Shown: positions 6,357 to 64,000 of the stretch, piece by piece | Layout of the letters: every line of letters begins with the position of its first letter | How positions within the stretch are numbered: the first letter of the stretch is position 1 | Position numbers and translations under genes: made by a program | Assembly (NCBI GenBank): GCA_044892505.1 | Contig: CM097884.1 | Span: 47,864,001 to 47,928,000 of the forward strand | DNA from: Schmidtea nova | Lineage: Eukaryota | Reading direction: 5' to 3' | DNA: 64,000 bases | Notes under the pieces: generated by a model | What the model was told of the DNA's origin: nothing | Database searches by the model: none | Seen by the model: the letters and a program-made list of their open reading frames with translations, nothing else

Positions 6357-6564
6357 TCTCAAAGGTCAAAATCCTTAATAAATATTTCACTTATATTATA
6401 ACAAAGAAAACGCATTTTATAGAAATTAACATCTTTTATTAAAAATAATCTAAAATTCGTCTGATTGCAGCTCATTTGGATCTGGATCTGGAAAATCATC
6501 AGGATCATCATCATCTGGATTATCATCTAGTTCATCAATAATGACATTGATTCCTAAATAATGT

Positions 6565-7085
6565 CCGAAAGCGAAACTTTTATTTTTCCCCACCCATTGA
6601 CGTTTCTCATCATTGTTACTTAATGATGTTTTATAATTTTTAAAAGTAAACAACTGATGATTTTTAGTTCTTTTCCGTGTTTGAGGTACATTAAAAACGC
6701 GATTATTTTTATAACAATAAATATAAGATATATGTTTTGTTTCAGTTCCAGGCAATGAAATCCCTTAGGATTTATTACTTTCCTCGTCACCTAAAAGACT
6801 ATAGCATTTTGGACGCAAGAAAACCCATTCCCTATATCCAAGACCCTTACTTTCATTTTTAAACTTATCTATCACAAAGTCAAAGTTTCTTGAATATAGG
6901 GGATAGTTAGGATCGTAGTTTGAAGTATCCAGAAGACAATCAGATATCATAGCTGTTAAAAGATTACTTAATTTACAATTTTTAATTTCAAGAAAGAAAG
7001 AGTCAGTGTTGCCAGCAACAATGTCAATCTTACAATTAAAAAGTTCACTATATTTTTGTAATTCTAGATATTGAAGTTGATACAT
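6565..7085 (-). pseudogene. Protein-primed DNA polymerase B, C-terminal fragment
   Basis: AGNTDSFF (YxDTDS motif), LLDTSNYDPNYPLYS, KFKNE, FLRPKCYSL, then SLSNNDEKR...AFGHY, typical of Polinton pPolB; frameshift near 6760. Confidence 0.88.
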
Positions 7086-7162
7086 CCGTGGTTAAGATAG
7101 ATCTAGAACCGTTTGACCGATATAACTATGTCTTTCTAAACAAATCAAATCTTTATTCAATT

Positions 7163-7460
7163 TTATTCATCTTTATTGCAATGTTGATCTAGTTGATGTT
7201 TCGCAATTTCATAACTTTTATTAAAATTATTGATTATAAATAGACGACTGCATGTTCTATTTTCAATTCTTTTGTAATCAATCTTACATTGACTATAAAA
7301 TGGAAATGTGTTGTACACAAATGTAAAATATTGTAATGCAACTTCCCAATTACCATCTAAATAAATTAGATTTTGAAGATTGACCATGAATTTATTGGCT
7401 TGATTATCTGGATGTATTAGTGGACAGCTATTACTTGGTAATATAGTATAAAAATTCACT
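7163..7460 (-). pseudogene. Polinton minor capsid (penton-like) protein, N-terminal fragment
   Basis: FYTILPSNSCPLIHPDNQANKF...IYLDGNWEVAL matches the FYxxLPSN...WEVxL start of Polinton minor capsid proteins; paralogous to 28980 and 30691. Confidence 0.8.
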
Positions 7461-8435
7461 TTACTAAATCTTTTGATGATATCCATGATGAGTTTTGATA
7501 TCCATGCCACTTTACATAGTATTGTTTATCCTTACCCACCGTTTTAGTTTTTAGTATTTTCTGAATTCTAAATACAGTTGGTGGCGGAATAACTTGTAGT
7601 TCTTGCTCATAAAATTTCCCACTGACTTCATTATTGTCAGAGTCAGAAATAACATACATTACAGGATATTGACTAGTATTAATTTTCGATATTTGAAATA
7701 ACTTATCACTCCAATTACTAACAAAATTCTTTATGAATGGCGAAGCACTAATTTTACTAATTTGAACATGATCAATAATTTTATATTTCGGTTTCTTTAA
7801 TGTTTTTACTTGACGAGAAATCTTTCCAGTATTTTCTGATGAAACATCAACAGGTCTCAATCCATTTATACCTAGATGTGGAGAATGATAATAACTATGA
7901 ATTATTTTCGGCAATACATTGACCCATGTTTTATTACCCTGGTATACAAAATACTTTTTGAGATGATCTCGTAATGTTCGATTAAATCGTTTAGCATGAG
8001 GTGTTTTGAATTGAGTGAATACAGAGTAATAATTAATCCCGGCCAAAACTTCTTTAACTTTATTATTGTAAAATTCTTTACCTAAATTTATAATTAAAAA
8101 TGTATATAATATTTTATATTCTTACCCAAATCAGTTTGTAAATTCTTGGGATGTCCATCTGCAAATAATGTTTTGATTGCTATTGCCATTTTTATTTTAT
8201 TGCCATTTCATGAGCTGACTTTTTTTGATTGGAACAGTACGTGAAAATCTACTGAAGACATCGATACATGTCAAAATATATTTATATCCCTGGTTAGTTT
8301 TTGAATATGGAATCATTTCCATCAAATTCATTTGCCAAAAATCATTAATACCATATGTTTTAGATTCTCTTGTTGGAAATCTTTTCAACATTGATTTGTT
8401 TAGACTGTATGCTAGTTGACCTGATAACCACTTTT
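7456..8435 (-). pseudogene. Polinton retroviral-type integrase with chromodomain, split by a 44-nt intron (8082-8125)
   Basis: WQMNLMEM, YILTCIDVFSRF, LQTDLG^KEFYN, FNRTL, GKFYEQELQ, QYYVKWHGY. Frameshift near 8210; N-terminus truncated. Confidence 0.92.
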
Positions 8436-10444: not shown

Positions 10445-13400
10445 TGGTGGGTTGTTGATCGTCAATATGACCTTGACGTTGCTATGGCTCTCATCAACAA
10501 CTCAACACATAAAACATTGAAATAACCATCTTGTTGCTCGTCACAATGTAACGTTGGTAATGCAACAAATGGGTGGGTATTCGCAATCAGTGAGCGTCGT
10601 CAATACGAAACTATGATTGACCGAATATCTCCTGGGTCCAAGGGCTACCGATAGAAGGTTTAATGCCAATTTTGTCCCTTCTTCAACGATTTATCTATAA
10701 GCATTCAAAAAATTTTATCGGAAATTCTACATAAATATTTTACATAACTATAAATTTATTATTGTATACAAGTAAATCATTCTAAGCATCAAGACACTAA
10801 CAAAACCTTAAATTTTTGCAAATATTATAATTTATGTTAATTATTAATTAGAGCATTCTAAAATAAAATTTTAATTTACATTTAAAGTAAAAATAAAAAT
10901 AAAAACTTTAATTTCTTAATTTACAAAAAATAATCTGATCTCTAATTTAGGGTTTTTCATTATTTTTAAATCTATGATTAATTTCTTCGGTTTAAATTAC
11001 CGACCAAATTCCATTTGTTTAAGTTTTTATTTGACCTAGAACAAATTCAAATGCCAACTAAATTCTCAAAATATCAGCTCGGAAAATGCCTACGAACCCA
11101 ACAAATCGTGCTCCAATATTCCATAAAAGCCCCAAAAAAAGGTTAATTTATCAACTAAAATTGATAAAATAATTTATTATTCTTATAGCATCCAAACACG
11201 ACAACCGGGAAGAACGGCTCTAAACCACTCTCAATCTGAATCACTCAATTTCAAGAAAACATCCGAATCGACAAACGTTCACTCTCCCATTCAAATTCCT
11301 CTGTCACCTCACTGGAATAATTTGGATATGAACGCATCAGTCTCACATGAATGAACTCACAACTCTATGAACTTTTTGTATTAAAATCCCTCTTCTCTAT
11401 GTGATGTTTAATAAAATAATTTTTTCCTTTTTTTTATTTTAATTAGTCGTTTGATTTTGTTTTCAGTAATATATGTTTTTTCTGAATGTTGTTAAAACCT
11501 TATAACAGATGAAGATAGATGATGTGGCTGAGAAATTTTTCGACAACCAACAAAAAAAATTTAGAGGTAGGATGCCGTAGGTGAAGGTAGTGATGAGTGC
11601 TAGGAAGTATATTATGGGAAGGTAGATTTCTGATTATAGTAATAAGGTGAGGCTTGTGAATAAAAGGTTTTGTGAATTTCGATGGGAATTTTGCATGAAT
11701 GTGAATTAATGATGGTAATATTCAGGGGAATTTGCGAGTTGGTATGTCGTGTTTTATGATGAAATTTTTATATGGCATGTGGTATGTTGTGATGATGGTA
11801 TGATTGTGTATAATATTATTATAGGTTTGACTGATTTCATTGTTACAGTGTTTGTGTGCGGTTATATGGTGGGTGACTGAAAACAATGGAGTGCTTGTGA
11901 GTGTGATTGGACGTGCGATGCCAACTAACTTGTCTGAGTGTAATTTTCGGTATGGTTTGCCTGTGTGTATATAATTGTTGAATGCTATTGAATGATACTG
12001 TGTATGTGTGTATATTGTATTTTATATGTATGTTACTGTATTATCAGTATGGGTGATGCTATTGAATGGTATTGGTGTGATGAATTGCAAATTTGAATTT
12101 GTATGTGGTTTTAGGGGGTATTTTATAAAATAATACATAAAATATTTTCAAAATTTAAATGATAACAATAATTTTTTAATAATTTTTATAAATTTTTAAA
12201 TTTATAATTTTATGAAAATAATAAAATTTCTAAATTTTTATAATATACATTTTCAGATTCGAATTTTTTTAATTTAAGAATATAGATATTAATCGTAAAT
12301 ATTTTCTATGAAATTTCGAAATTTTAGATTTTATAAAATGATAAAATTTTTAATATAATAATAATATTTTCGATTTATAATTTTTATGGGTTTCGATATA
12401 ATTTTTGATTTAAAAATTCTTTGTAATTTTATAAAATGACAAAATATTTTATATAATAACAATATTTTCGATTGGTAATTTTTATGGGGTTCGATATAAT
12501 TTTTGATTTACAAATTCTTAGGAAAATTTTTTGGTTCACAATTTTTCATTATAAAATTTTTGCAATATAATAAAAAGTAAATTTTTATTTTTTGATCAAA
12601 ACGAAATCCACATAATAATAAATTTTTATCCACAAATTTCGCAATCCAAATAAGAATTCAATCTAAAAAGTTTTATATACTGAATAAAAATAAAAGTAAA
12701 ATAAGTTATAAATTCTTCAAAGAATATTTTTCGACATCGAGTAAAGTGAATTTAAGTTTCGTTCGAGCATGAATTTCCCAACCAAAGTGCGCGCGAATTT
12801 TTCGGGACACTTCACTTAGGAACTTCAGGCTCCCGAAAACAAGGTTCACTGGAGAAAATTATTTAGATAATGAATGAGGTTCAATTCAGATCAATCAATA
12901 CTTGTCTTCATAATTCGTTTCATTTCGTGATCATTATATCAACTTTGAGCATTGTTTCAACGATTCTCTTTTCAATATCGGTTGTTAATATTCTGGATCT
13001 TGGATAAGGAGAAAAATCATAGCGAAAGTGAAGGCGAAGGAGGAGTAAAATGTTCTTGCACAAATTAAATTTTTATAATGGAAAAGACATTACTGGAGAA
13101 AATCATCTTTACGTTTATATGTGGTATCAAATTTTAATTATGAATATGTTAGAATTATAAATTCAGATAAACTACATTATTATAAATCAAATATCATAAG
13201 TATAACAATTTGCCCTTGGTCAAGCCACTGTTCCCCAGTTGGGATGAAGTGATCATGGATGTTTGGGCTATTCACCTGGACTCGGAAATATGGGCTGATC
13301 GATTACGAATCGAACCAGCGATCCGCTCAGGCTACTTCCACCCGATCGGCACAAGGCCAGAAACAGGCTTCAGGGGGTACGGAAGCAAAAAAATTATTTG

Positions 13401-14521
13401 TTTATTTAATAACTTTTATTTGGACTACTAAAATTTTTCAATTATGAGAATTTGTGATAAAAAAAAATAAATAAAAAAATTCATTAGATGAAATCCTATA
13501 TAATATTTTCATTATCAATATACAAATAATAAATCCCAAATAATAACAGTAAAAAATAACTAAATGAATCAAATAAAAACGGTGTCGACATGGGATGTCC
13601 AAAGGGCATGATTTTTTGGACCTCCCATACCGATAACGCATATATAATAAGATAAATATAACATAAAAATAAAATGAGGAAATCCTTACGCTCAGTGCGG
13701 CTTCCTAATGGGTTTTTCGGAAACAAAAATTGATTTTCTTGATTTTTTCGGTAAATTCTTGATGGGTCCGTTAACTGCGGCTCTCCTGATTAATTTTTTC
13801 TTTTTCAAATTGAAATTGAAATTCTGTAGATTTAGAAATACCAAAAATCTCAACCAAATAAAAAAAATTTCCACAAAAATTCTGATTATTGCCATTTTGA
13901 TGGCGGTATATATACCATCGATTTTGCGTTACCTTCACTAGTGTAATAAAACAAATTGTTCTAGAATTTTCTTTTTAATTTTTCTAAATTAATTCTAATG
14001 ATTTTCCAAAAATTAAATCCATATTTTTGTGTAATAATTTTTTATAAAACACAATTAATTTATTTTAATTCAAAATTTTTATTTTTGAATCGAAATTTGT
14101 TCGATTTGATTTAATTTACGATATTTCGATCAATATTAGTTCTTTTTATTGTTAATGTGAAATATTTTGATAAAATCACAATTTTCTGCTAAAATTTGGT
14201 TAAATATTTTCTGTACTGAGGTTTTATAACACAATTCTGTTCTTTATGGGCTTTTCAATGGGTTTTCCGCCTATTCTAACTTTCAAACGTTCTTCTTTTG
14301 ACGATTTTTAATTTTTCTCGAGATTTCAGTGTAAGGACTTGCAAATTTACAGCTAGCGCGTACTCTACTGGTTGATGTGTTTTGAGTCCACTTAACCTTT
14401 TGGTGTTTTCCACTTAATCGCTTGGATTTTTAATGGATGTTTGGGTTAAAACTGAATCTTGGGCGCTCTCTACCTATGGGGTTATCGCTTTATTAAAACA
14501 ATTTGTAGTTTTTGCCCAACA
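10445..14521 (-). mobile_element. Giant solo-LTR-like unit A1 (4077 bp)
   Basis: Ends TGGTGGG...CCCAACA, ATTT on both sides (10441-10444, 14522-14525), colinear with 51176-54920 in conserved blocks. Confidence 0.75.
11086..11354 (+). CDS. Putative two-exon 73-aa ORF inside unit A1 (intron 11142-11188)
   Basis: Splicing a 47-nt GT-AG intron gives an open frame MPTNPTNRAPIFHKSPKK...SHE*; a similar arrangement lies at the equivalent offset in A2. Confidence 0.3.
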
Positions 14522-23200: not shown

Positions 23201-23913
23201 AGGGAACGGAATTGTCGGCGACCCGACTAGAATTAAATCAGTGCCTTAGAACAGTTTATAACGCAAGATCTCGCAAATCAAATTCGGGCAATCACGTTGG
23301 AGAAATGGACGAACAGAAGATTATGTTCAAGTGATACCCAAACGGAACTTGCATTCGATAACGATGTGGATCCTTCTATGAGTACGGAAAGCAACCAGCA
23401 CGTGAACGTTAGGGACAGAAAATGAAAAACGAAACAGGTTGGGAGCGAAACGGAGACGAGAACGCCTAGCATTCGAGGAACGGCTCAATATTCAATTAGA
23501 TTTACTGAGTGGGGTGACAGAAAGGCAATTTCTGGATCTGATCGAACGTGAGATGTTGAATAAATAAACATGTATTTTCAAACTGTGTTCAGTGTATGAT
23601 TTCAATGAGTTATAAATGATTTGTGTTGTTTGATGAAGTTATTTTACTAAATGGTAATTTTAGATAATTATTTCATATAAAGGGACAAGTGTACGACGAA
23701 GAAAGGTCTTCTATCGACCGAACGAACCAGTATGGGCAAGAGGGGAATAGTAACTACCTAGGTTGCTCACCTGCCCTTTTGACATACACCGGTTGGTACA
23801 GTTCAGGCATGAAGTACAATTAGGGGTATCTCACGGGCACCATTACGGGGTTTAGAATTTTATGTGGGTGGAGTTGCCTTAATACAAACATCAATAAACC
23901 ACCACACCCAACA
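20222..23913 (+). mobile_element. Giant solo-LTR-like unit B (3692 bp)
   Basis: gaag|TGTTAGG...CCCAACA|gaag (perfect 4-bp TSD). Carries the shared motif at 23707-23770, CCAAT/TATA-like boxes at ~20737-20770 and decayed ORFs. Confidence 0.65.
20737..20770 (+). promoter_or_regulatory. Candidate Pol II promoter of unit B (inverted CCAAT plus TATAAAA)
   Basis: ATTGG at 20737 and TATAAAAA at 20763, ~540 nt from the unit start; a TATA-like palindrome lies ~610 nt from the equivalent end of A1 and A2. Confidence 0.35.
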
Positions 23914-25753
23914 GAAGTAACCTAACAAACATATAACAAACAAATCTTCTTAAATTTCCAATAGTTACATTATTTGTAATAGTTATTGAATTTCTATATT
24001 TGCAACAGCCATCATACATTATTCCAACGGTTCTATCCTCTTTCTCCCATCTAGTATACCCGTAAATGCCTCACTGGACACATTCACATTGGTAATGCAT
24101 ATTGATTGTCGACGGGCTTAGTTGGTAGTGAGCGTGTTTCTTGCACTTTACCTCCAAACCGTGCCTCCTGATTATCTGTGTTAATAGAAGACATGAAATA
24201 TCGCTATGGGAACCCTGCCTTGCGCTTTCTGTAACCTCTCAAGACGACACTGTTAATTATCCGTTAAAATCGGTTCATTTCGCTGTCCCGTACATTATTC
24301 ATTAAAAGCCATTAGAGGGTATGAAAGCAAAATTATTTATTTATTTAATAACCCGACACTCATACTGGGGCATTTAAATTTTTTGGGATTTCAGAAAAAT
24401 GTTCAAATAAAACTGTGTTAATATAAAATAATATATATAAAATAATATAAAATACAAACCATATAAAACTTAAAAATTTAAATTGAGACTAAAACTAATT
24501 AAAAATTAATTAAAATTAAAAATCAATATTTTGAGGGTGGAAGAGGTATGATAGAGTAGCAAATAAAACGCTCAAGATAAATATATTAAATATAATTTGG
24601 CGAGGGTCCCAAAGTTAAGGTATTTTAAAAATAAAAGTAATTAAATATTTGAGAAAAATTAGATAACCATTCTTGTTCAATAATAACAATTCTTGGGAAC
24701 CACCACTGACAACATACATAGTCCAAAAAATTCAATTTATTTTTGGGATTTAAACAATAGTTAGATGTGAAACAAAACGCTCTATAAAAGGAGATACCAA
24801 AATACGACAAGCGCCAGAAAATAATAGAGAATTAAGAAGCAAACAGAGTCAGAACTTGTTATTGAATTAATGATTGAGAATTTTAAAAAGAAGAATTGTT
24901 CCTTCCCAAAGCATTATCAAATAGTTCATATTTATTAAATTTATCCATATTTATTGACTGTCAATATCGATTAGTTTTACGATTGAGTAATTGTATTCGC
25001 GTAATTTGATAAAAATGACACGCACAGTTAGCTAATTAATTCCTATCTGTAACATTTAAATATAAAACCAACACTTCCATACAAAAGTGGTTTATAGTGA
25101 GTAAGGAGAAGTGAGCGCTCTGACACAAGCCAATTATCTCTAACCTATGTAATAATTTTCCAGTGACCCCTCTGAGATTTTTTGGAGGGGTTTACAAAAA
25201 TTATGTGAAACTACATTGCTGTTATCACTTTATATATTATAAAATACGTTATATTCAGAATTTTATTATGTAACCGATGATTTAATAATTTTATGCTTTA
25301 ATCGATGCCGAAATGCTTAATTTTTTTTAATTTAATTTTTCAAGTTTTTGCAAAAAGTATAAAATGTATTAATTTTTTCGAAATTTAAAAAAACTTTATG
25401 GAGAATTTAAAGCCCACCGACAATTTACAAGTAAAAAGGGTCGATTCCCACAAAAATGGTCGGAATTCAATAATTTTTATACCAATCTACTGAGAATGAA
25501 ATGGAGAACAAAAAAAGATTTTAAAAATTAAAAAATGAAAGTTTTGTCTCATCCATTATAATTTTACACTTTAAAACATTACTCCTGCAATTTCCAAAAA
25601 GTAAAGATTGGTCAGAATTCAATAATTTATATACCAAAATACTCACAATTTACCGATCAACAACAAGAAATTCATAAAAATTATAAAAAACAACAAAAAC
25701 ACAAAGTACTTTAAAAATAAATCTTTATTCAAGAAAATCTAGTTTTTCGACAA

Positions 25754-27790: not shown

Positions 27791-27886
27791 TAAATTCATA
27801 AATTGGTGCTAAAGTTTCAATAGATATTAACATCTTGTTGTGACAATGAAGGAAATATTATCCAAAAAGAGCAAACCAAAAATAAA

Positions 27887-28973
27887 TTGAAAAAGATTTG
27901 GACAAACCCAAAAGATCCTGGTTGGTTTGCTGGGGTAAATAAAATTTTAAAAAGAGTAAATAATTCAAAGAAAGATACACAAAAATGGTTATCTGATCAA
28001 TTGGCATATAGTTTAAATAAACCAATGTTTAAAAGATTTCCTACACGAAGTTATAAAACAATTGGTGTTGATGATTTATGGCAAATGGATTTAATGGAAA
28101 TGATACCTTTTTCAAAATTGAATAAAGAAAACAAGTATATTTTGATTGTTATTGATGTATTTAGGCGCTATGCACGTGCAGCTCCAGCAAAATCTAAATC
28201 TGCAAATGAAATGGCTGAAGCTATAAAAAACTTTATTTGTAGATGGGCAACCTCAAAATTTGCAAACTGATTTGGATAAGATTTTAATTTAATTTTAATT
28301 AATTTTAATTTAATTTTAATTTAATTTTAATTAATTTTAATTTTATTCTAGGTAAAGAATTTCATAATAGTAAAGTTAAAGAAATTATCAAGGTTATTAA
28401 TCATTACTTGGTATTTTCATAATTCAATGCAGCTGTTGTTGAAAAATTCAATCGAACTCTGAGAGATAAATTGAAAAGATACTTTTTTTTAAGGAAATAA
28501 ATACATGTTTTGCGTAAATTGATTTATAGTAATAATTATTCTCAACGTAAAAAAATACAGGGAAAGTGACCAATTGATGTTTATCCTACAAATAATATGA
28601 ATAGATAGTTATCTGAACAAATAAAATCAATAACTAAAAAACCGAAATACAGAGTAGGGGATCATATTAGAATCAGTAAAATCAATGGATTCCCTTTTAG
28701 AATTTTGACAATAATTGGAGCGATGAAGTTTATCAAATTTTGAAAATCTATAAAAATCAGAAACCGGTCATGTATTTTATTACCGATTCTGAAAAAAAAT
28801 GATATCAGTGGAAAATTCTATGAACAAGAGTTACAAGTCATTCCAGTCCCATCAGTATTCAGAATTCAAAAGATTTAAAAACCAAAAATGATTGGAAATA
28901 TAAACAATATTATGTTCAACGGCATGGATATGAAAAACCAACTTGGATATCTAGAAACCAATTGATTAAATAA
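27887..28973 (+). pseudogene. Polinton integrase with chromodomain, with a degenerate intron at 28276-28351
   Basis: LWQMDLMEM, YILIVIDVF, QTDLG^KEFHN, VVEKFNRTLRD, GKFYEQELQ; clearly homologous to 7456-8435. Confidence 0.92.
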
Positions 28974-28979
28974 ATATTA

Positions 28980-30697
28980 TGAAAGAAAACTAGTTTTCTA
29001 TGATTTTGCCTATTAATGCGTGTTCTCTTATTTATTTTAATAATGAAGCTAGTAATTATAATGTAGAATTTCAAGATCCGATTTATTTAAAAAATAATGA
29101 CGATATGAAAGTTTCTTTGATTGAATTTACTTTTGTGTATAATTTGTTCCCGTATTATAGTAATTCTTTTATTCAAATTGTAAAAGAAATTTAAGAAATC
29201 AATTATTTGAGAATCAAAAATGTAAGTAATGTATTCGAAGTTTTAAATTCTCAACCTAGTTCAGATACTGATGTATTTATTGAAAAATATGAAAATTTAT
29301 TGTTTGTTTGCCCACATGTTCCATTTAAAATTATATTTCCAGATCTCGAACATGTAAAATGTTATGGATTGGATAGTTAAACAATTATTAGTGAAAATGA
29401 TCATTGTCGATTAAAATTATTAATAATAATAATTATTGTGAATAGTTAAGGTCAATTAAGGGTTATGTTGTGATGAAATTTATTTATGATAAAGTATATG
29501 TTATTTATTAGTATATATTATTTATGTAGTGATTGTTTGTATTGGAAAAATGAAGGGCCCAGCCGAGTCACCAGTAAAAGTGTGTCGGGACAACTTGGGT
29601 GTATGTTGTGTACGTGCTTGTGGGTGTGAGTGTGTGCTTGCCTGTGTAAGAATGCAGAATCACAATTTTTATTATAAATAACAACTTTTAATTTAAATAA
29701 CAACTTTTATTATAAATAACAACACGTACTCGCGATTTTGCTGGGGATTAATATTTCATTCGTTAAATAAAAATCTTTTTCTTTTTGATTTCAATCGGTT
29801 GATAATTTGTTTTTGTATCTTCGAGAATTTTATAATTCGTTTCTTTAATTATTTTTTCTATTTGTCTTGGTTAATTGTCACTTTAATAATTCGTTAATTT
29901 CATATTTTCATTTCATATCTCCACTCTTTCATAATAATCGATTTCTTTTATTTTTGCGTTTGCAATTTCTATCGTCTGATACTTTTATGAAACTTTTACT
30001 GATATTTTCTTTAATAAATTCTTTATAGGCTTCTTTAAAACTGGCTAAATTAATTTAGTAAGCTGAAGGCATCTTTTAAAATCATTTAAATTTTTTTAAT
30101 CAATTTTCTTTAATTTTTCAAATTCATATAGTAATTTATATTACTATAGGAATTGATTTTTTATTTTCATAATTTTAATTTATTATGTTATTTTTTTAAG
30201 TTTTAAGTTAACCATAAAAAAGTGATAATAATAAACACAAGCATCACACAAAACACAAATAATTAACAACTAAAGGGATTACTATGTTCCCAAAACACAA
30301 TTTATCATAAAAATTGACATTTACTATAATAGATTATGACATTAAGACCGTTAATTATCATTATTTTCAAAAAGAATTATTCATTACGACATTACCTAAA
30401 TTGAAAGGATATTTAATGAAAATAAATCTATCTCCATTCAAAGAAATGAAACTTGTCAATAATGAATTGGTTATTGGCGATGTACGAGTTCCCCTGCTAA
30501 AATGAATTTGGATAAAAAAAATATGACTAGGGTGAAGTTGTATAAATTGAAATAAAAAACCCAATGTATTTGCCAATTTCAACATCAACTATAAACAACA
30601 TTGAAATCAATATTCGTGATGACAGTGGAAAATTAATTAAATTTTTAAAAGAAACAAACTTACATTTGACTCAGCATTTTCGTAAAATAAATGAATA
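28980..30697 (+). pseudogene. Minor capsid/penton-like gene 1, interrupted by unrelated sequence (~29520-30300)
   Basis: N-terminus ILPINAC...VSLIEFTFVYN; C-terminus VIGDVRVPLLK...IEINIRDDSGK...HFRKINE*. Confidence 0.72.
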
Positions 30698-34330: not shown

Positions 34331-37300
34331 AAACTAACTTTTCTAGAAGGCTTTTCTATTTTATTTAATTTATTTTAAAAAAATAATTATTTTATTTTTA
34401 CCAAAATAAATTTATATTTATACATAAAGTTTTATTCATTACCTTAATAAAATTTATTTTTATCAAAACTTTGTATTTTTCATGAATTTTTACTACTTTA
34501 GTCACTACTTTAAACATTTACTACTTTAAAAGTTTTTACTACTTTAATATGTTCTTTTTGAATGTTCTTTCTATTTAATTTAATTTGATTTACAAGTTAA
34601 ATATTTTATTTTTACTAAAGTAAGTTTACATTTATAAATAAAATTTTATTCATTACTTTAATAAATTTTATTTTTATCAAAATTTTAAATTTTACTTAAA
34701 TATTAACTACTTTAATTTTAATTTTTACAATTTACTTTTACATTTTTCAGATTTAAGTTATCAAAATTAAGATAATTAATCATAAAATTCTTTGAATTTT
34801 TCTAATTCTTCAATGAATTTTCTGTTAATTTTTTTTAATGTTTTTTGAGGTTACTTCTTGCTCTTGTTCAATTTAAATTTTACTTTTGTTTCAATTAATT
34901 TTTTTCTGTGTTTCTTATTACTTTTGTTTATCTGGTGTTTAGTATTTAAGATATTTAAGTATACTTCTTACGCGATCTCTACTGGCTTTCCTCACTCATT
35001 TCCAAATTTATTAAATTTAGTTTTTGCCCAACTAAATGTCTTTTTCAAAGAGTATCTTTGTAAGTTTTATTATTTTTCTAAAAGTCTATAGATAAAAATT
35101 TAAAAAAGTAATAAATAAAGTACAAAATTAATTAAAAATTGAAAAAATAAAACTCAATATTTTGAGGAGGAAATGAGTATAAGCAGTTGACAACTACAAA
35201 GATAATAATTTAAAATCGTGGGGTTCATAGAAAAAGATATAGGAAAACATAAATTAATTTTAAAAAAACAAATAAACTTAATTGCTGAATGGAAACCCCG
35301 AGAAGTAATAATAATTAACGGATAAATTTGAGCTCAGAGCGGTGTGTTGGTGTGTATGAGCTGTTACGAAATTATTGTTGGTCTCTAGGGATTTCTAAAA
35401 CCCACGCCCCATCATAAATGTTAAACTACTTCAGTCGTCTACCCATAGTTCCTCCTTGGCAAACTAAATGGTACTGTACACGGTGGCGAGAATCTAGTGA
35501 GCAGATGAGGTTTGTTTCCAAAACTGCTCCTCACTATATTCTCTCTTTCGGGTTCCTGCTGCCGATAGAAGGACTTACACACATACTTATTTTATGGTCC
35601 TTTCGCATGATTATTGTCTAGCTTTCTATTCGCCTTATTTATTCCCCCAACATATCTAAACAATCATCTCTTAATTTTCTCTTTATCTCGCTATTCTATA
35701 TTGGTTCTAACAGGTAGAATTTTAATAAAATCACTTGCTAAATTATCCGATGTGAAAGTAAGTTGTTAAAATTATGAAATGTTAAGTTATGATTTTTCAG
35801 CGTCTGTTTATACTAATTCCAAATGACGCCTACGCATCCTGTTTGTTAAATAGGAATAATAATACTTTAATTTATATTTTTATTTTAAAATTTAATTTAT
35901 TTAATTTGATAAATGATTATTTCGGCTCCTTGCGATTAGATCGATTTTTGTCACTTTCCGAAATTAACACAGTACTTTCATCAGGATCAATAGGTACCTC
36001 AGATTCAGACATACGCATACCAACATTATCAGATTTCAAAATAAACTTATCCACGGTCACTTTTGTCATTTTCTCAAGAAAAGATTTAAAGTAACCCTTT
36101 TTAAGTAATAACTCAACCAAGACATCAATACTTTTTACTGAATTATCAAACGTAGAAGATAGTGACCAAAACTAGTATATAAAGGGCGCTCAAGTCAGTA
36201 GCATTACCACTTTTATAAACATTTTCGTTTAGGAGCATTTTTCTGAAAACCAAACCAATATTATTTTTGTAGTAGCGATTTAGCAGCGTACATTATCATC
36301 CGAACAGCAATTCTAACCAATGACACTTGAGCCATTTTTATCATTCCATTGACAACTCTTGATCAGCTTTTGAGCATCTTAGTTATGAAATTCTTATTTG
36401 GAAGATATTGCAAGTAAAATTGTATTCTTTAAATAAATTTTTTGTTATGAACCACGGTATTTTCATTTTGTCTAAAAATTTAAATTCATGTTGGTAGTAA
36501 GTTGCCTGAGAGTCTGGACGGCTCTAGGAGTTGCTGACTCTCTCGGTAGTTTCGCCCTCCATTTCACACCTCTAGTGTGGGATGGATGGATGGACTATTG
36601 CATGGCAAGTCGGTAAAAAGTTCAAACAGTGAGTGGCTGCGAATGTCGGAATGCCGAGATACCAGTAGTTCCCCGGGTTGAACAATTCTCGATACGGAGA
36701 TGAATTTATTTGTATCAGGATTTTCCCCTGTTTAATCGAGTTCCAGCGCAAAAGGTGAATTTTTATACCAGTAGTTTCCACGGTTTAATCCAATTGTCAG
36801 AGTAGAAAATAAAGGATTTTTCTTGGCAGTGCCCCGGTGGAATCAATTGTCGGCGTAAAAAGTGAATATCGGTAGTTCCCTGTTTAAACCAAATAACCAG
36901 ATAATCCAGATAATTTCCCTGTTTTTACAAATCGCTTTTCCATTCAACAAAACTTTCGTCAGGTTCCATTTTCTGTTAAATAAAGGTAGTGTTTAAATCG
37001 ATTCCCAGTCTCAGAACTTATTTCAGTAAATTCATAAATATGTCATGCACTTACAAAAATTGCTAGAACCGATTAAGCTGGAGCATTTTTCGTAAAAATC
37101 AATTTGTAACTCCCATAATACAACCCGAGCGTGAATTCCAAAATCCCCGAACAATTTATTACGGATTATTCTCTCGAGGTATTCATGCCACAGCTCTCCT
37201 AAACACCCATCGTGACAGTGCGTGAAGTTAGTGAACCTAGGTATAGATGAGAGTAATTACGCTTCACTCGAGCACACCACCAGGTAATGACGTCATCGAA

Positions 37301-39537: not shown

Positions 39538-41240
39538 TTGCACAAATGAAATCATTGTTTTGTTTGAGTGTTGAATTTTATATTTTGCTTGATTTAAAAT
39601 AGTAACTGAAAGTGTTTTTCCGACGAATCAAAGAATAAGAATAGTATAGCGAATTTACAGTTTACACCCAAAATTAAAAACCAGCGCAAGGGTGAGAGTG
39701 GGAAATAACATGACCTTTTATCGGTCCAGTAGAACCCGTACAAGAATCGAATCGAGAGTAGTTCTTGTAAAGGAGCTCACCTGTCGATTCGCAGTCGTCT
39801 GTCATGCACAGAACCAATGTAAATAAATATGGTATTTACGGGTGCATGGGCAGTAAGGGTTTATGTGCGTGTTGTGACCCTAGAAAGAAAGAGTATTTGA
39901 GAGGAGAGATGAGTATTTGTAATTTCGAACAACAACACGACCAACATTCCTTTCTATCGTTTTCTCCCTAACTCGACCGAATTATGAAATTCGGTTCATG
40001 ACTGCTATTTGCACTTAAGTATTTTATAATCTTTTGCGTTATTTTACTGCTTAATGCTCTATCGTGCGCTTTGAATTCGTTTCTTTTTGTGCCAATTTAA
40101 TTTTTGGTGCGTTTGAACAAAATTTATTTTCTTTTCTACCAGTACTACAGGTGAATCAATTTGATCATTTTAAGAAAAAAGCGACGGTAAAAAGGAAATG
40201 ACAGGAATTGTTCTAAATTATTCAGGAGATTTCCTATTCAGCTCCTAATTTAATTAATTTATTTGTAAAAAGTTGCAAGTTGATTGCAAAATTAAAAACA
40301 AAAAAGAATTATGAAATAAAGGAAATTTTGTCAGTGTAAAGAAACTATCAAAACAAATATGAATTGCTGATGTCGAACAGTCACGGTAACTAATATCAAG
40401 AATTTAATAAAACAATACACGAATTTCTAATTAATTAATTTTCAATCATAAAACTTATTTTCAATTTTCATTATCCTCATTTCTTTTCAGACAATAATCC
40501 TTAATTTGATTTTAATAATAATATTAATAATGAAAATAATAATAATAATAATTGAGAGATGTTTAAAAATACTCTAAATATTTTTATAAAATTATTTTAA
40601 TGAAAAAAGTATTTTGTAAAGAGAACATCTCGTTTAAAATTAAAATAATTATCAAGTAAAGATTTTAATTAGAATATTTAACATCAAATTTACAATAAGA
40701 AGTTTTATTAAAGTTTTTGTTAAATAATTAGGTTTATTAAAATATAGCTGAAATTAATTTAAAATCGTATGTTGAATATATGAATGAATGTTTAAAAATT
40801 CTGTCACGAAAAATTACATATTTATTTGAATCTTCTAACGTTGTTTAAAAAATTGTGGTAAAAATACAGTCTTTGAAATTTTGTTAATTTAATTATTAAT
40901 TTAATGATCGATGCAATTAACACCTGAAGTTCGGGAAAAGATGATACTAACAATAATAATAAGTGCTAGTTTTGAAAATTTTAGTTAAATATAAAATAGG
41001 ATATCGATCGATTGTCTGGAGAGAAATGAAATAGATGTTCCAATTAAATTTAATAAAAAAATAAAACTTAAAACTAATAAAATTTAATAAAAATCTTGGC
41101 AAAATTGTCAATTGTCTGAAAAATCAATAACTTAAAATGAATGCTCTAAAGTTAATTCCTACAAAGAAGATTAAAATAGAAGAGAAAATATAAGTGAAAG
41201 TGTAAAATCTAAAATATCAGGCAAGAGTCACTGTTGAAAG

Positions 41241-51175: not shown

Positions 51176-54100
51176 TGGTGGGTCGTTGATCGTCAATATG
51201 ACCTTGACGTTACTATGGCTCGCATCAACAACTCAACACATAAAACATTAACATTACCATCTTGTTACCCGTCACTATGTAACGTTGGTACTGTAACAAG
51301 TGGGTGGGTATTCGCAATCAGTGAGCGTCGTCAATACGAAACTATGATTGACCGAATATCTCCTGGGTCCAAGGGCTACCGATAGAAGGTTTATTGCCCA
51401 TTTTGTCCCTTCTTCAATGATTTATCCATAAGCTTTCAATAAAAATTTTATCGGAAATTCAACATAAACACTCTACATAACTATAAATTCATTAATACAT
51501 CCAAATAAATTATTCCGAGCATCAAAAACACTAATATAACCCTATTTTTACCAATATTGCATTTTATGATATTTAATACATAAAATATTATATTTTTATA
51601 GAAAAATTTTTATCCACATTTGAAATTTAAGAAAAATTTTAATTATTACCGTAATTTACTCCAGTTTAGAAATAATAAAAATAAAATTTCCGTTTGTTTA
51701 AAATTTCTAATTTAATCAAAAGGACAAATTTACTCAATTTAAAGTTTATATTAATTTTAAATGTAATTTCCTGAATTTTTCGCTAAATTGATAAATTAAC
51801 TATTACTATAGTTCAGATCAACAAGAAATGGACCTTTCCAGAAACTACGAAACCAGAGGAAAATTCTCCCGCCCCAAACGGGTCAATCCGATTAGAATTC
51901 GAGCTCCTATGAAGCAAAATAGCCCGCTCTACCAACCAAGTAAAATTTCGATTTTTTCAGAATTATAATTTATTTTGATCAATTTTAGAAAATTTCTTGA
52001 AGAGAATATGTGGGAGATGGCCCTTCAAGTACTACAAACCGAAAAAAAAATCCTTGCCGGGGACTCTTACCCCTCAAACTGAATTTTTATCAATAAATCT
52101 TTAGAAAAAAATTTTTTTCGTTTTTACTCTTTTTCATTTGAGTTTTTATTATTTTTATTAAAAATAAACTGTAATGTAAATGGCCTATTTGGCTGGGTAT
52201 ATTAAATTTTATATGGTAGGTTTGAATGATAGAAATTTTTGTATGGTTTTTCTGGATGTATGTTGCCGACTAACATGACTGTGTAGAATCTTCAGTATTG
52301 TTTGCTTGTGTGTATATAACTATTGAATGCTAATAAATGATACGGTGTATGTGTGTATATTGTATTTTAAGTATACGTTGCTTGTGTATTAGTATGGGAA
52401 ATGTTATTGAATGAAATGGATGTAATTTTTTGCAAACAGGGATGCAATATGATTTTTGAGATATCGTGGGGGTATTTATAATATATATATATAAATTATA
52501 TAAAATAATTTTAAAATTAAAATAATAATAATAATTTTTATATTAAAATAATAATAATAATTTTTATAATACAATAAAAAAAATTTCCAATTTTTAAATT
52601 ATAAGTTTCTATAATGCTCTTTATAAATAATTTTATAAAAATATGATCACAAAACTTCCAATTTTTATGATACACATTTCCACAATAATTTATAATTTTA
52701 TGGATATGATAATAAAATTTATAATTTTCATAATATACACTTTTATAATACTTTTTATAAAAATTTTTTAATTTATAATTTTATGAAAGTAATATAATAA
52801 TAAAATTTCCAATTTTTATAATATAAATTTTTATAATACTTTTTATAAGTTTTAAATTTATAATTTTATGAAAATGATATACTAATAAAATTCCCAATTT
52901 TATATTATAAATTTTTATAATGCTTTTTATAATTTTAATAATATAATAATACCATTTTTAATTTTTATAATATGAATTTTTATATTCGAATTTTTATATT
53001 TTAAGTATATATATATATAGTAAAAAGAAAATTTTCCTATAGAATTTTGAAATTTTGGATTTTTTGAAATGATAAAATTTTCATTATAATAATAATATTT
53101 TTGATTTAAAAAATTTTTATGGGTTTCAAATATAAATTTTTAATTATGAATTCTTAGGAATTTTATAAAATAACCAAATCTTTTATAACAATATTCGGAG
53201 AATTTTTGGTTCACAATTATTCATTATAAAAATTTTCCAATATAATAAAAAGTAAATTTTTATTTTTTGAAACGAAATTCACATAATAATAAATTTTTCA
53301 TCCATACATTTCGAAATCTAAATAAGCATTTAATCTAAAAATTTTTTATATGCTAAATAAAAATAAAAAATAAAAATAAGTTATAAATTTTTCAACGAAA
53401 TTTTTTCGACATCGAATAAAGGTAATTTCGGTTTCATTATTATTCCATCGGAGTTGAGCATTAATTCGAACTATTTACTTTTTTAATATCGGTTTTTAAT
53501 ATTCTGGATCTTGGATGAGAAGAAAATTATTGTGAAGGTGAAGGCGAAGGACGAGTAAAATGTTTTTGCATCATCATTTTTCCTAATGGAAAAGACATTG
53601 TTGGAAAGATTTGTCTTTACGTTTTCATGTGGTATTACTTTTCAATATATTAAAATTTATAAATTCGGATAAGCTACATTTATTATAAATAAATATCATT
53701 AATATAACACCTTGCCTTGGGCCAAGCCACTGTTCCCCAGTTGGGATGAAGTGATCTTGGATGGTTAGGCTATTCACCTGATTCGGACAAATGGACTGAT
53801 CGATTTACGTATCGAACCAGCGATCCGCTCAGGCTACTTCCACCCGATCGGCACGAGGCCAGACACAGGCTTCAGAGGGTAAGGAAGTAAAAAAAAAAAT
53901 TATTTAGTTATTTGATAGTTTGAGTTACTAAAATTTTTGTCGGATTATGGGAATTTGTGATATATAAAATAATAATAATAATAAATAAAATAAAACAAAT
54001 TTTTAGATATAATCCTATATTATCAGTAATAAAAGAATACAATAAATGAATTAAATGACATAAAAATAAATAAGAACTGTGTCGACATGGGAGGTCCAAA

Positions 54101-54920
54101 GGGCATGACTCTCGGGCATCCCATGCCGATAACGCATATACAAAATTAAGATAATAATAATAAAAAAAAATAAACCTTACGCTTCGTGTGGTTTCTTCTC
54201 AAAAATTAATAAAGTTTAATAAACAATAATTTTGTAAAATTTCTAGACCGAAAATTTTTCACAAATTCTTTACAAAAATTGTGTTTCTTGCCATTTTGAT
54301 GGCGGTATATATACCGTCGATTTTCGTCACCTTCACTAGTGTAATAAAACAAATTGTTCTAGAACTTTCCATTTAATTTTTCTAAATTAATTCTAATGAT
54401 TTTCCGAAAATTAAATCCATATTTTTGTGTAATAATTTTTTACAAACCACAAATAATTTATTTTAATCCAAAATTTTCATTTTTGAATCGAAATTTGTTC
54501 GATTTAATTTAATTTACGATATTTCAATCAATATTAATTCTTTTTATTGTTAATGTGAAATATTTTGCTAAAATCACAATTTTCGGCTAAAATTCTGTTA
54601 ATTTTTTCTGCATGAAGGTTTTATAACACAATTCCGTTATTTATGGGCATTTTCAATGGGTTTTCCGCCTTATTCTAACTTTTAAACGTTCCTCTTTTGA
54701 TGGTATTTGATTTTTCTCGAGGTTTCAATGTAAGAGCTCTCAGACTCACAGCTAGCGCGTTCTCTACTGGCTGATGTGTTTTGAGTTTACTTCACCTTTT
54801 GTTGTTTTTCACTTAATCGTTTCGATTTTTAATGGATATTTGGGTTAAAACTGAATCTTGCGCGCTCTCTACCTATGGGGTTATCGCTCCGTTAAAACAA
54901 TTTGTGGTTTTTGCCCAACA
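51176..54920 (-). mobile_element. Giant LTR-like unit A2 (3745 bp), probable terminal repeat of the element extending beyond 64000
   Basis: TGGTGGG...CCCAACA ends, colinear with A1, but flanks differ (TCGT vs TAAA); directly abuts a multi-ORF cassette. Confidence 0.72.
51828..52104 (+). CDS. Putative two-exon 75-aa basic ORF inside unit A2 (intron 51940-51988)
   Basis: Removing a 49-nt GT-AG intron gives MDLSRNYETRGKFSRPKRVNPIRIRAPMKQNSP...EFLSINL*. Confidence 0.3.
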
Positions 54921-55255
54921 TAAAATACTCGGGGGCCCGCAAAAATTGCGTCCCGCAATTTCTCAGAGGGGTTAAGAACCAAGACTAATCAAAGGTCAAA
55001 AGGTTGTACATTATACACGAGCTACTTGGTCGTGATCATGCCATTCGCGACAATAAAAATAAAAAGTGATAAAAATTAATAAAAAGTTAATACGTATACA
55101 TTAATATGAGTCTACATCGACTCGCAAGCAAAAAAAAAATTAAATATAATGTAATATATGTGCCTACAGCGGCTAATCAAAGTTCAATATGAGTCTACAA
55201 CGACTCGGATAAAAGTTTTATCAAGTTTATTAAGTTTGTTAAATTATCAAATTTA

Positions 55256-60256: not shown

Positions 60257-63200
60257 TTACTCTAACAACTTGCGTTTCGACGACACTCTGATGTTCTCAT
60301 CTGGCTCGTCGGTTAATATGACTTTTATGTCTTCTTGGGTGACTTTTGAACCATTATGTGTTACTATCTGACATACGAGTGTTCTAAACATTTCTTGTGA
60401 TACTTTCTTTTTGTAAACACAGATTTTATATTTTGTTTCTCGTTTTAATCCATTTATTCGGATTTCTCCTCCTTCTGCTCGTTGACATTTGACTGGATTA
60501 TCTCCTTTAATTTGCAATTTGACGCTACTCCAACATGCTTCTTCATTATCTGCTCCTTGTATTAATACTTGTACTGGTTTTCTCTTGTCATCCGCTTCCG
60601 TTCCTTTCAATGCTGACAGCATCAATATCAGTAATATTATGTCTTTTATTCGAGTTTTATGTAGACATGCTGTTCGTTTTTCATAATTTGAAGTTTCTTG
60701 CTTGGGTTCATCACTTTTGTTCCCAATTTCCTCGTTATTGCTTTTTCCATCATCTTTCTCGTCTTTGTCATTGTTTCTGTTGATACTTTCATTGTCATCT
60801 TTCTTTGTTTTGTTGTTGTTATTCTCTTCATCTTCATCGTCAGGCTCATTGTGATCATTAGCACCACCCTCGGTTCTGATTAAAATGTCGTCCTCGACAT
60901 TTATTAATTTTATTATTTCCTCATATCTTTTAGCTATTTCATCTGCTTCGGCTTTTATATTTGCTCTCTTGGTTATTTCATCTTTGGCGTTGTTCCAGCT
61001 TCGGTGAATTCTGCTTTCTTTTATATTTTCTTTCCATATGATGACTTGCTGATATAATTCATGTCTTTTAGATCCAATTCTTTCTTTTTCTTTTTTGTTG
61101 TTCGTAAACCTGAAATCAGGTCTTTGCAGCAATGCTTTAATCGTTTTACACATTTTCCATTTTCTTTTCATGGCTCTTTTCATTATCATATTTTCACCGT
61201 CTTCAAATCTGTCATTGACATTTATCACTCCTTCGTGCGTAACTGGATGTAACCATTTAATCATTTTTGCTGTTGTTTCGTCGGCATCTTTGTTCACTGC
61301 ATTTACTAATGGATTTGGATCTGAACTGAGCACTTCAATATCTTCTTCTGTAGCATTTGACATAATATATTTGACTATTTGATGGTTATTTGCTTGCACT
61401 GCATAAGATAACACCGTTTCATTTTTATCATCTCTTTCTTTAAAACTTGATCCGGTTCTCATCAGTTCTGCTATGAGTTTCTTGGATCCTCCTTTTTCAA
61501 TTGCTATCATCAAGGGTGTTTGATCTTTCCAGTTTTTTGTGTTGGTATGTTGCTTGCACTTTTCCATGAGTTTTATGATTTCAAATATTCTCTGTTCATT
61601 CCCACTTTTTATTGCGTGATATAATGGTATCTCATCTTTAAAACTGGCAATTGTAAAAAGTATTGGTAATCTTTCTTTTATGGTATTCATCGCTTCTGTC
61701 GTTTCATTTCCTTTGGCATATTCCTCAACCATTAAGCTTACTCCTCCCAATATTTCAAATAGATTTTTACTTTTTGACCATTCTGGCATAATTTCTTTGG
61801 TAATCTCAATGATCAATTCCATCTTTTTGCGGTGCTCCATTTTTACATCGTCAACTATCTTAGGTTGTTCAGATATTGTTGTTGGCTGATTTACTTTTCT
61901 GCTCACAGTTAATATACGGTGTAGCCAATCGTCATTTTTATTCTCTCGAAACATACATACTTGTCCTTTTCTGGTCATTTCTTGATTTGATTGTTCTGTC
62001 GCTGTTTCTCTTGTGCAATCCTCTTCAATTTGGTGTTTCAACTTCATCGTATTCAAATCAATTACAGATCCTTTTAACAGTTTTGGTATCAAGTCTGTTC
62101 CAATAATACATGATGCACCCAGTTGTTTTATTACTGTCAAATAAGTTGATATTTTTACTTTTCTGTATTCGATGTCTGTCCATATCTTTCCAACGATATT
62201 GACAGATTCTTTGCTGCATGTTATTACGTCTACTGATGTTTTCTCGATGCATAACCGTAACATTTCTGGTATCATATCGATATCTATTGCTGATATATTT
62301 GCGCCAGTATCAATCATCGCGTCTACTTTTACGCCATTAACTTCGATGTTAATTGTAAGTATTGGTCCAGCTGGAGTTTTCATCATTGCAATTATCGTTG
62401 TTTCGGGATTATCTTCACCTCTTGCTTTTCTGGTCAACTCGCTTCCTGAAATTTTATCAACAGTTAATTTATTACTTGTTTCGATTTGTATCGGGGTTAT
62501 TCCGATTTCTATATCATCATTCAGTGATTCTCCATCATATTTCAAGTGAAATGGTAAGTTAAATGGTAATCTCTCTTTTATCTCTTTGATCTTTGTTGTT
62601 AATGGTACATTCATCTTTATTTCTTCTAAACTCGGAAACTGAATTTTCAATCTGCACATCTGTGGATCATCGCTTGTTTGTTCCAGTTGTTTCCATTTTC
62701 TTATGATGTCATTAAATTGTGTTGAATACCAAGGGCATAAACGTCTGCATTTCTCGATTTCTCTCACTATCAATCTCATGTTTGATATATTTGCACTATT
62801 TTTTATAACCCATTTTAGTAATTCAGTTGTTGTTTCACATTGATTTCCTGCACTCTTGCTTAGGTTACTGATTAATCGTTCGGTCTTTGACGTTTCTGTT
62901 TGTCTTGATCTTTCGAGCTTCGCTGATTTCCTTTTTTCTTCCGACTTTTGATTCATTTTCGTCATTTCTTCTATGGTAATTGTTAACAATCTTTGTGCCA
63001 CTTCTTCTAATTTGATTGTCGTAGATTCATCCCATTTTTCGTCCATGTTACATATGTCATCATCGCTTCTTCTTTCTCTTCTTTTTCGGTTATATTTCTC
63101 CACAAACTTCTTCTTTTCTTCTCCCTCCATATCTTTTACTGAAAATTCATATATATTTCCCTTTCTTTCCATTTCAACGTCTGATAATTCGGTTATCATT

Positions 63201-63319
63201 TCATTTACTTTTTCTTCGATATTCTGTTGTAGTTGCATATTCATTGTTACTACTTCTTTTTCTTCTTCCTGTAAATTATCTTCCGAGTTTGCACTGATAA
63301 ATTTCTGATTCTCCTCCAT
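60257..63319 (-). CDS. 1020-aa multidomain protein: coiled coil, ubiquitin-like, retropepsin-like aspartic protease, ankyrin repeats, acidic linker, hydrophobic segment, FN3-like
   Basis: Protease VNGVKVDAMIDTGANISAI...IIGTDL; ankyrin WKDQTPLMIAIEKG and KNETVLSYAVQANNHQIVKYI; hydrophobic IILLILMLSAL; INGLKRETKYKICV. The UBL and FN3 calls are tentative. Confidence 0.85.
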   Translation of the reverse strand: MEENQKFISANSEDNLQEEEKEVVTMNMQLQQNIEEKVNEMITELSDVEMERKGNIYEFSVKDMEGEEKKKFVEKYNRKRRERRSDDDICNMDEKWDESTTIKLEEVAQRLLTITIEEMTKMNQKSEEKRKSAKLERSRQTETSKTERLISNLSKSAGNQCETTTELLKWVIKNSANISNMRLIVREIEKCRRLCPWYSTQFNDIIRKWKQLEQTSDDPQMCRLKIQFPSLEEIKMNVPLTTKIKEIKERLPFNLPFHLKYDGESLNDDIEIGITPIQIETSNKLTVDKISGSELTRKARGEDNPETTIIAMMKTPAGPILTINIEVNGVKVDAMIDTGANISAIDIDMIPEMLRLCIEKTSVDVITCSKESVNIVGKIWTDIEYRKVKISTYLTVIKQLGASCIIGTDLIPKLLKGSVIDLNTMKLKHQIEEDCTRETATEQSNQEMTRKGQVCMFRENKNDDWLHRILTVSRKVNQPTTISEQPKIVDDVKMEHRKKMELIIEITKEIMPEWSKSKNLFEILGGVSLMVEEYAKGNETTEAMNTIKERLPILFTIASFKDEIPLYHAIKSGNEQRIFEIIKLMEKCKQHTNTKNWKDQTPLMIAIEKGGSKKLIAELMRTGSSFKERDDKNETVLSYAVQANNHQIVKYIMSNATEEDIEVLSSDPNPLVNAVNKDADETTAKMIKWLHPVTHEGVINVNDRFEDGENMIMKRAMKRKWKMCKTIKALLQRPDFRFTNNKKEKERIGSKRHELYQQVIIWKENIKESRIHRSWNNAKDEITKRANIKAEADEIAKRYEEIIKLINVEDDILIRTEGGANDHNEPDDEDEENNNNKTKKDDNESINRNNDKDEKDDGKSNNEEIGNKSDEPKQETSNYEKRTACLHKTRIKDIILLILMLSALKGTEADDKRKPVQVLIQGADNEEACWSSVKLQIKGDNPVKCQRAEGGEIRINGLKRETKYKICVYKKKVSQEMFRTLVCQIVTHNGSKVTQEDIKVILTDEPDENIRVSSKRKLLE

Positions 63320-64000
63320 TTCTTTCTGAAAATCGGCTACAAACTTTCAAATGTTATGGGTTTTACTTCTTTATTTATCAGCTTTATTTCTTTGTAATTT
63401 CCTTTCGTCGTTTTTTAATAGATTTGACTCTTTATCTTTCGACTTTACGAACTTGGTTGGTTTGGTAGTATTATCAATTTGCGTTTAATATCGATTGCTG
63501 ATCTCTCGTTTATCTTCAATTGGATCTTCTTTGATTTATTTTCTTTTACTTCTTTCCTTTTCAATTAGACTTCTTTTTCTTCTTTTCTTCTATATATACC
63601 TCTTCAATAACTGATTGATTTGACTATCTCTTGGCTTGGCTTTGATCTGTTGGACAATCTAAATAAAAATATCGCTTCTTCATCGACGCCATTTACCCCC
63701 CTTTTATTCTGAGCTCAGATTTTAAATTATCTATATCTCGTAATAATTATCTATATGGTCGTATCAATTATCTATACCCTGATAATAATAATAATAATAA
63801 TAACAATAACAATAACTATACTAATACTATAATAACAGTAGGATCCTGTCGACTCGTTTTCATATTCATCTCGGCATTCGAGGTTAAAAAAAAATATCTT
63901 GTTCGTTATCTATTCATGGCCATTATTTTATTTCCTAAGTATTTCTCAATGTCTTTTATCTGCTCTTTTTAACGGTTTGTATTACTACACCTTAAGTATT

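Follow-up and report, generated by a model that had tools for sequence, protein, structure and literature searches.

The 64,000-nt stretch of Schmidtea nova DNA analysed here (the window) carries several copies of a conserved, covarying RNA motif situated at the 3′ end of long terminal repeats (LTRs). We consider it likely, with moderate confidence, that this predicted RNA acts in the 5′ leader of the host element as a platform on which reverse transcription starts. The evidence comprises the position of the motif relative to that of the primer-binding site (PBS), the covariation of its helices, and a nearly invariant block complementary to the primer, tRNA-Pro.

A conserved motif in the LTRs of Burro-type elements

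The motif is real and far beyond chance. Its pattern has 6,914 + 6,821 = 13,735 matches in the AT-rich, 1.25-Gb genome (G000), where the reversed pattern used as a control has 0, and motif family A is the commonest among the matches listed. A covariance model, for which 32 copies from elsewhere than the window were used, was searched against window positions 1-52000 and 53000-64000 and finds all five instances reported by a sequence-only reading of this DNA (E 4e-29 to 4.7e-18). Each was re-located at the coordinates and on the strand given there, 143-166 nt from a TG(T/G)TGG terminus as described, and the weaker sixth instance suspected in the same reading is recovered weakly at 24039-24204 (E 0.002). 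The five units had been counted as separate; those at 10590 and 51321 belong to a single LTR family and do not differ in their core, leaving four independent units. In the unit at 35497 the homologous GTGAGC is not the word first chosen; it is a second, decayed one at 35505-35510, in a family that carries GTGAGC in tandem.

The TG...CA units, which had gone unrecognised, are LTRs of Burro-type giant Ty3/gypsy retrotransposons, assigned by element layout against the published description. Planarian Burro elements have been described with a matching polyprotein layout (PMC6431247, in the part drawn on here). Motif-bearing sister families are elements of 25-30 kb with LTRs of 3-4 kb, and one of them encodes fusion glycoprotein, protease, RT, RNase H, integrase and ankyrin repeats together in a single ORF of ~5,100 codons, in the Burro-type order Gag-fusion protein-PR-RT-RH-IN-ankyrin. 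The family-A element in the window (21 kb) has long ORFs on the minus strand, including one with the protease and ankyrin domains, the only part of this order present in family A; RT and integrase are absent from the two copies examined. LTR pairs were found in 4/4 further elements, one with a truncated 5′ LTR.

The far LTR of the family-A element (minus strand) is followed by 10 nt and then an 18-nt PBS that is exactly complementary to the 3′ end of tRNA-Pro(UGG) as encoded in this genome. For the PBS pattern 3,127 matches were counted, and the spacer from LTR end to PBS measures 6-10 nt across families. Of 106 PBSs, 11 match a tRNA-Pro(AGG) gene instead, and the UGG anticodon is therefore not required. 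Because the ORFs and the PBS lie on the opposite strand, the strand on which the motif was first read is the antisense strand of the element, and its TG(T/G)TGG terminus is the 3′ end of the LTR. No PBS directly follows any of the window's own units, which are listed below together with the domains of unit A.

10445..14521, minus strand: solo LTR of family A, 4,077 bp, with TG...CA ends and a 4-bp flanking duplication (ATTT); homologous to 51176-54921; 3′ (U5) end at 10445
10517..10671, minus strand: predicted structured leader core of unit A, domains I-III (covariance model 82.5 bits, E 3e-20)
10647..10659, minus strand: predicted domain I of unit A, 3-bp stem and 7-nt loop, equal to CC GATAGAA GG on the other strand
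10634..10641, minus strand: block of unit A resembling a primer activation signal (PAS-like block), with complementarity to tRNA-Pro at the T loop and the 5′ strand of the T stem (putative pairing)
10584..10619, minus strand: predicted domain II of unit A, with outer helix, U:CAC internal loop and 7-bp hairpin; the GNRA cap is absent in A and present in other families
10531..10569, minus strand: predicted domain III of unit A, with stem, 8-nt bulge ending in CCAA (10554-10562) and inner stem
10445..10513, minus strand: predicted domain IV (U5 stem) of unit A; the pairing of UUUAUG with the spacer was tested on PBS-bearing copies, and this solo copy is without a PBS
51176..54921, minus strand: 3′ LTR of the 21-kb family-A element, core 51248-51402 (covariance model E 1.3e-21)
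68480-72225 in extended window coordinates, minus strand: 5′ LTR of the same element, beyond the window and with a PBS; the two LTRs are 99.84% identical
54922..54965, minus strand: junction before the family-A 3′ LTR, with a small hairpin, T run, G run and spacer instead of a typical polypurine tract
60257..63346, minus strand: family-A protease and ankyrin ORF; no RT or integrase found
23694..23913, plus strand: unit B, core 23694-23857, LTR 3′ end at 23913, no PBS after it (covariance model E 4.7e-18)
35345..35585, minus strand: unit C, core 35422-35585, LTR 3′ end at 35345, no PBS after it (covariance model E 4e-29)
39701..39946, plus strand: unit D, core 39701-39862 with a GNRA (GUAA) hairpin, LTR 3′ end at 39946, no PBS after it (covariance model E 1.2e-24)
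24039..24204, minus strand: unit E, an old decayed copy (covariance model 18.2 bits, E 0.002) whose PAS-like block is unrecognisable

In three of four elements a conserved hairpin, a T run and a G run stand before the 3′ LTR, where no clear purine tract is seen; the fourth LTR pair matched only over its last 760 bp. cDNA usually extends 2 nt beyond TG...CA. Given a spacer of 6-10 nt on the PBS side and one of 3-7 nt at the 3′ LTR junction, both cDNA ends may here extend well beyond it.

Several further observations concern the surroundings of these units. Four accessory family-A ORFs lie at 55256-59586 (minus strand), with coiled-coil and, in two cases, hydrophobic stretches, and no Pfam family above cut-off. 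A single long ORF at 41241-43232 (minus strand) has ARM-like repeats and a TIR domain, a presumably SARM1-like layout, amid transposon debris. The region 4065-27700, with unit B and solo LTR A in it, recurs ~34 kb upstream (L025-L027) at an identity of 98-99.7%, as a recent tandem duplication or an assembly duplicate. Integrase and chromo domain fragments, which we take to be Polinton-like, occupy 6450-8435 and 27824-33430, partly in inverted copies, and pieces of Tc1/mariner-type transposase occur near 16421 and at 44191-45207. Just outside the 21-kb element, three model matches within 900 bp in both orientations (L022:2780-3656) represent nested or rearranged LTR ends.

A predicted leader structure before the PBS

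On the RNA strand the motif forms the 5′ half of a ~300-nt predicted structure at the LTR 3′ end, before the PBS; the conserved element thus exceeds the 69 nt originally delimited and extends to the end of the LTR. It begins with a hairpin with a 7-nt loop and the block GRACCC(G); then come a hairpin with a GNRA cap, a stem bulged at CCAA and a kissing pair, and last a long stem ending at the PBS. The motif is present in 101/106 distinct PBS-bearing leaders, which were sampled by PBS patterns and come nearly all from one contig; decay, interruption or truncation accounts for the five leaders without it. Between the end of the GCUCAC block and the PBS there are 155-202 nt, and the GRACCC(G) block lies about 210-250 nt before the PBS.

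Domain I is a short stem with the loop UUCUAnC. Domain II runs from an outer helix over the invariant U:CAC internal loop to a hairpin of 7 bp, whose loop is GNRA in 80/80 leaders outside family A, with five different tetraloops; the 21 family-A leaders have another loop. Domain III has a first stem, then an 8-nt bulge with CCAA at its end, then the inner stem, and its loop UAGGG (CAGGG in one family) has a CCCUA kissing partner in 6/7 families, both partners being missing in family A. In domain IV, the predicted partner of UUUAUG is the spacer of 6-10 nt that follows the LTR (duplex z -2.0 to -4.9, 7/7 families), and because these partner bases lie outside the LTR the domain is complete only in the 5′ leader. 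At the centres of loci L294 and L299, two LTR copies lack domain II, with short repeats at the exact limits of the gap, which gives the appearance of a skipped hairpin.

The helices of domains I-III covary strongly, by comparative sequence evidence, while the rest of the LTR is unalignable. In a structure-blind alignment of 39 copies, 85.0% of cells are paired, compared with 67.0% after shuffling and 29-41% with slid partners, and both-sided changes number 182 compared with 61 in shuffles, which ignore kinship. A second alignment of 32 copies gave 84.0% paired cells and 181 both-sided changes. These alignments took 39/45 and 32/34 representatives, the excluded copies being truncated, rearranged or near-duplicate. 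Since the shuffles ignore kinship, branch changes were also counted on a tree, giving 47 pair-to-pair changes, where 500 partner permutations average 3.9 and reach 15 at most. These helix statistics support the original proposal of a conserved cis-acting RNA with covariation. Compensatory change in the 7-nt-loop stem holds up as well, the pair being kept in 6/6 double changes on the tree. The middle hairpins proposed for units A and D are real as complementarities; they are not predicted from the 39-row alignment, and the conserved hairpin is formed by these bases in a different register.

Strand preference was assessed from mismatches and from folding energies. Domain I, the weakest helix (73-76% of cells paired), has mismatches that lean to the other strand (G-U 3, A-C 9). 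The domain II inner stem shows 61 G-U and 12 A-C mismatches, and folding z ranges from -1.7 to -3.6 on the RNA strand against -0.1 to -1.6 on the other, with the RNA strand favoured in 7/7 families. Position, strand, PBS and the covarying helices of domains I-III are, at the level of sequence, established.

The strand on which the motif was first read offers an alternative in the form of antisense transcript signals, with a CATAAA box, a donor CAG/GTGAGC and an acceptor NYAG/ 59-65 nt further on (the slash marking the splice site). CAG/GTGAG is present in 6/7 families, the interval length is constant, and the acceptor AG is kept in all but 2 tabulated top variants, position -4 varying and -3 always being a pyrimidine. 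However, family A has TCA/ at the donor, CATAAA is accounted for by pairing, and the GNRA loop, G-U bias and folding all favour the RNA strand. No LTR copies without exactly this interval were found (7 matches vs 23 in the control); two copies are instead without domain II, at short repeats. We therefore consider an antisense intron very improbable.

A self-cleaving activity was also raised in the sequence-only reading, and the core could in principle be an undescribed ribozyme that processes element RNA. Invariant unpaired bases in several loops are connected by variable helices, as such a molecule might require, and retrozymes carry LTR-borne hammerheads (PMC4918200, in the part drawn on here). 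The search of Rfam nevertheless returned 0 gathering-score matches in the window and, for six leaders at E up to 10, only two unrelated weak matches; the invariant blocks, moreover, have other explanations. The absence from known families that had been anticipated was thus borne out, and the ribozyme option, which gained no positive support, appears extremely improbable. Attempts to fit it by eye to the cores of HDV-like, hairpin, twister, pistol and hatchet ribozymes and of group II domain V, as we take these to be defined, failed.

Conservation starts abruptly at domain I, and this onset speaks for a third alternative, in which the structure controls transcript ends as a TAR-like promoter-proximal RNA or as a poly(A) switch, whose U/GU-rich element the PBS spacer would hide in the 5′ LTR and leave free in the 3′ LTR. 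Domain IV differs between the two LTRs, and AATAAA or CATAAA lies 26-30 nt into the motif in 5/7 families. The hexamer is missing there in the other 2/7, family A included. Copies with a poly(A) tail after the motif gave 9 matches vs 6 in the control, none in motif context among the matches listed, and this alternative leaves GRACCC(G) unexplained; we regard it as distinctly unlikely. The transcript ends themselves, like every function assigned to the structure, are inferred, and the placing of domains I-II within the 5′ leader is putative. In the 1,200 nt upstream in 7 families, no promoter word was common to 5/7. A DRE-like DNA reading of the 7-nt loop, based on what we take to be the DRE motif, was set aside, the sixth loop base varying in multi-copy families.

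Retroviral packaging signals lie mostly 3′ of the PBS, a position that speaks against reading the leader mainly as a Gag-binding, packaging or dimerisation signal in which the GNRA loop, internal loops and kiss mark genomic RNA and the tRNA match is incidental. Family A also lost the GNRA loop and the kiss, yet retains the PAS-like block and domain IV, and spreads. On the other side stand the compact covarying domains with a GNRA loop and a kissing pair, the retention of the structure in a non-autonomous element, and a precedent in Ty1, whose 5′ end is highly structured and binds Gag (PMC4974528, in the part drawn on here). We judge this explanation unlikely.

The seven families are close kin, and agreement across 7/7 families does not represent seven independent events. 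Their proteins are similar (RT 96%, protease 55-75% identical), and BLASTN between the whole LTRs of three families detects only 71 nt of similarity, at the start of one pair. Because the LTRs are unalignable while the proteins are close, selection on the motif is strong, but the clade is young.

Complementarity to the primer tRNA-Pro

The GGGTYC word noted earlier corresponds to GRACCC(G) on the RNA strand. This block could form 7-8 bp with tRNA-Pro gene positions 49-57, at the same place in 7/7 families; what is observed is the complementarity, and the pairing is putative. Shuffled tRNAs did as well anywhere in the leader in 2/150 cases, and when complementarity to tRNA was tested more broadly, along the entire leader, the result did not reach significance (p 0.16). 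Positions 49-57 are the 5′ strand of the T stem together with the T loop, which are set free when the PBS anneals. The first six positions of the block keep complementarity to the tRNA in 100/101 leaders, with A/G and C/U changes only where wobble allows. This PAS-like block is nearly invariant and, for that reason, displays no covariation with the tRNA.

Family A maintains the motif in an element lacking RT and integrase. Searching the LTR elements of G000, we found no motif-bearing family with another primer, and 15 loci of an LTR family with a different PBS gave no covariance-model match. No covariation was seen between the PBS variant and the base after the PAS-like block, nor, by eye, a conserved partner of the block downstream of the PBS. 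Folding of the ensemble without tRNA predicts that the block pairs with the PBS in 5/7 families.

We propose the following sequence of events for the platform reading. Domain IV would pair U5 with the spacer beside the PBS and so present the PBS, while domains II-IV would fold back through the GNRA loop and the UAGGG/CCCUA kiss, bringing GRACCC(G) near it. Before priming, GRACCC(G) is predicted to pair with the PBS and mask it. Once the 3′ 18 nt of tRNA-Pro have annealed and so released its T loop and the 5′ strand of its T stem, the block would capture both, in the manner of the HIV-1 PAS. The CCAA bulge may touch the anticodon loop, a speculative contact of four bases. The model assigns neither a partner nor a role to the 7-nt loop. 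Of the functions first listed for the motif, 'priming signal' agrees with the platform reading; the ribozyme function listed beside it is unsupported.

A bolder version can be put forward only tentatively, and we think it possible but rather unlikely: a folded, tRNA-reading platform that masks its own PBS, grips tRNA-Pro at the 3′ end, T arm and anticodon loop, is locked by the GNRA dock and kissing loop, and would gate reverse transcription as a T-box-like sensor in a giant virus-like retrotransposon. A D-loop contact of CCCUAG with the tRNA was considered and set aside; an internal UAGGG partner exists, and both are lost together in family A.

Two observations on the genome concern the primer and its use. 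The tRNA-Pro(UGG) gene pattern has 902 matches genome-wide, and a long tandem array of these genes with a 308-bp period lies near 459.6 Mb of G000:C1 (L136-L145). A second LTR family (L252, L254-L257, L260-L264 and others) has a similar CA-TAAAT spacer, a different PBS and no model match.

Comparison with known primer-binding leaders

Leader structures and extra primer contacts are already known from retroviruses and from Ty1/Ty3 of yeast; for the PAS model itself the basis is a small number of viruses. With thousands of natural copies in several families, the elements described here support, at the level of covariation, a large leader fold in a gypsy clade of animals. Their PAS-like block matches the tRNA at the position expected, which opens the PAS question to tests in a separate lineage, and the covariance model is a sensitive marker for otherwise unalignable Burro LTRs.

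The Burro/GYPSM1 elements resemble the sister families in their 25-30 kb length, 3-4 kb LTRs, ~5,100-codon polyprotein and fusion glycoprotein before the protease (PMC6431247). That account, in the part drawn on here, covers proteins, and the window's family A differs as a 21-kb derivative without RT or integrase. We did not find the RNA structure or primer of Burro LTRs described in the literature consulted; the original Burro description may mention PBS or LTR features. The strict motif has one match in metagenome contigs (mostly prokaryotic), a bacterial chance match without the hairpin or a covariance-model match, and 0 in viral contigs, where an RT-based locus search also returned 0. RT relatives at 55-61% identity exist (P0013, P0015, P0016, P0018, P0020, P0022 and P0045).

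In avian sarcoma virus, the U5-IR stem closes just before the PBS, as domain IV is predicted to do. Pairing of U5 with the primer T loop is a further likeness to the block described here (PMC3185550, in the part drawn on). The element reported here is much larger and multi-domain, and its stem uses a long spacer outside the LTR. Ty1 and Ty3, with their extended (bipartite) primer contacts and, in Ty1, a 5′ pseudoknot, offer LTR retrotransposon RNAs with extra complementarity to the T and D arms of the primer and a structured 5′ end on which reverse transcription depends (PMC4974528, same limit). The boxes of Ty1 lie 3′ of the PBS in GAG and those of Ty3 at the far RNA end, whereas the block here lies inside the LTR, upstream of a full 18-nt PBS.

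The closest parallel is the PBS-segment of HIV-1 with its PAS, and by analogy the structure appears to work like it, in an architecture that we have not found described. In the parts of the HIV-1 literature drawn on here (PMC11181671, PMC3185550), the PAS pairs with the TpsiC arm and the A-rich loop with the anticodon, and the PAS model is disputed (PMC3185550). T-arm contacts of this kind are untested for HTLV-1 and tRNA-Pro, according to the part of PMC11251516 drawn on here. Both systems have a structured region before an 18-nt PBS and a block complementary to the primer T-stem 5′ strand and T loop, and as the A-rich loop of HIV-1 meets the anticodon, the CCAA bulge could do likewise (PMC11181671, PMC3185550). 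Unlike in HIV-1, the primer here is tRNA-Pro, and the block is separated from the PBS by three domains, at about 210-250 nt upstream, a greater distance than that of the HIV PAS. Its predicted masking partner is the PBS itself, and a GNRA hairpin, a kissing pair and the spacer of 6-10 nt that parts the LTR from the PBS further distinguish this leader, whose proposed function derives from the comparison.
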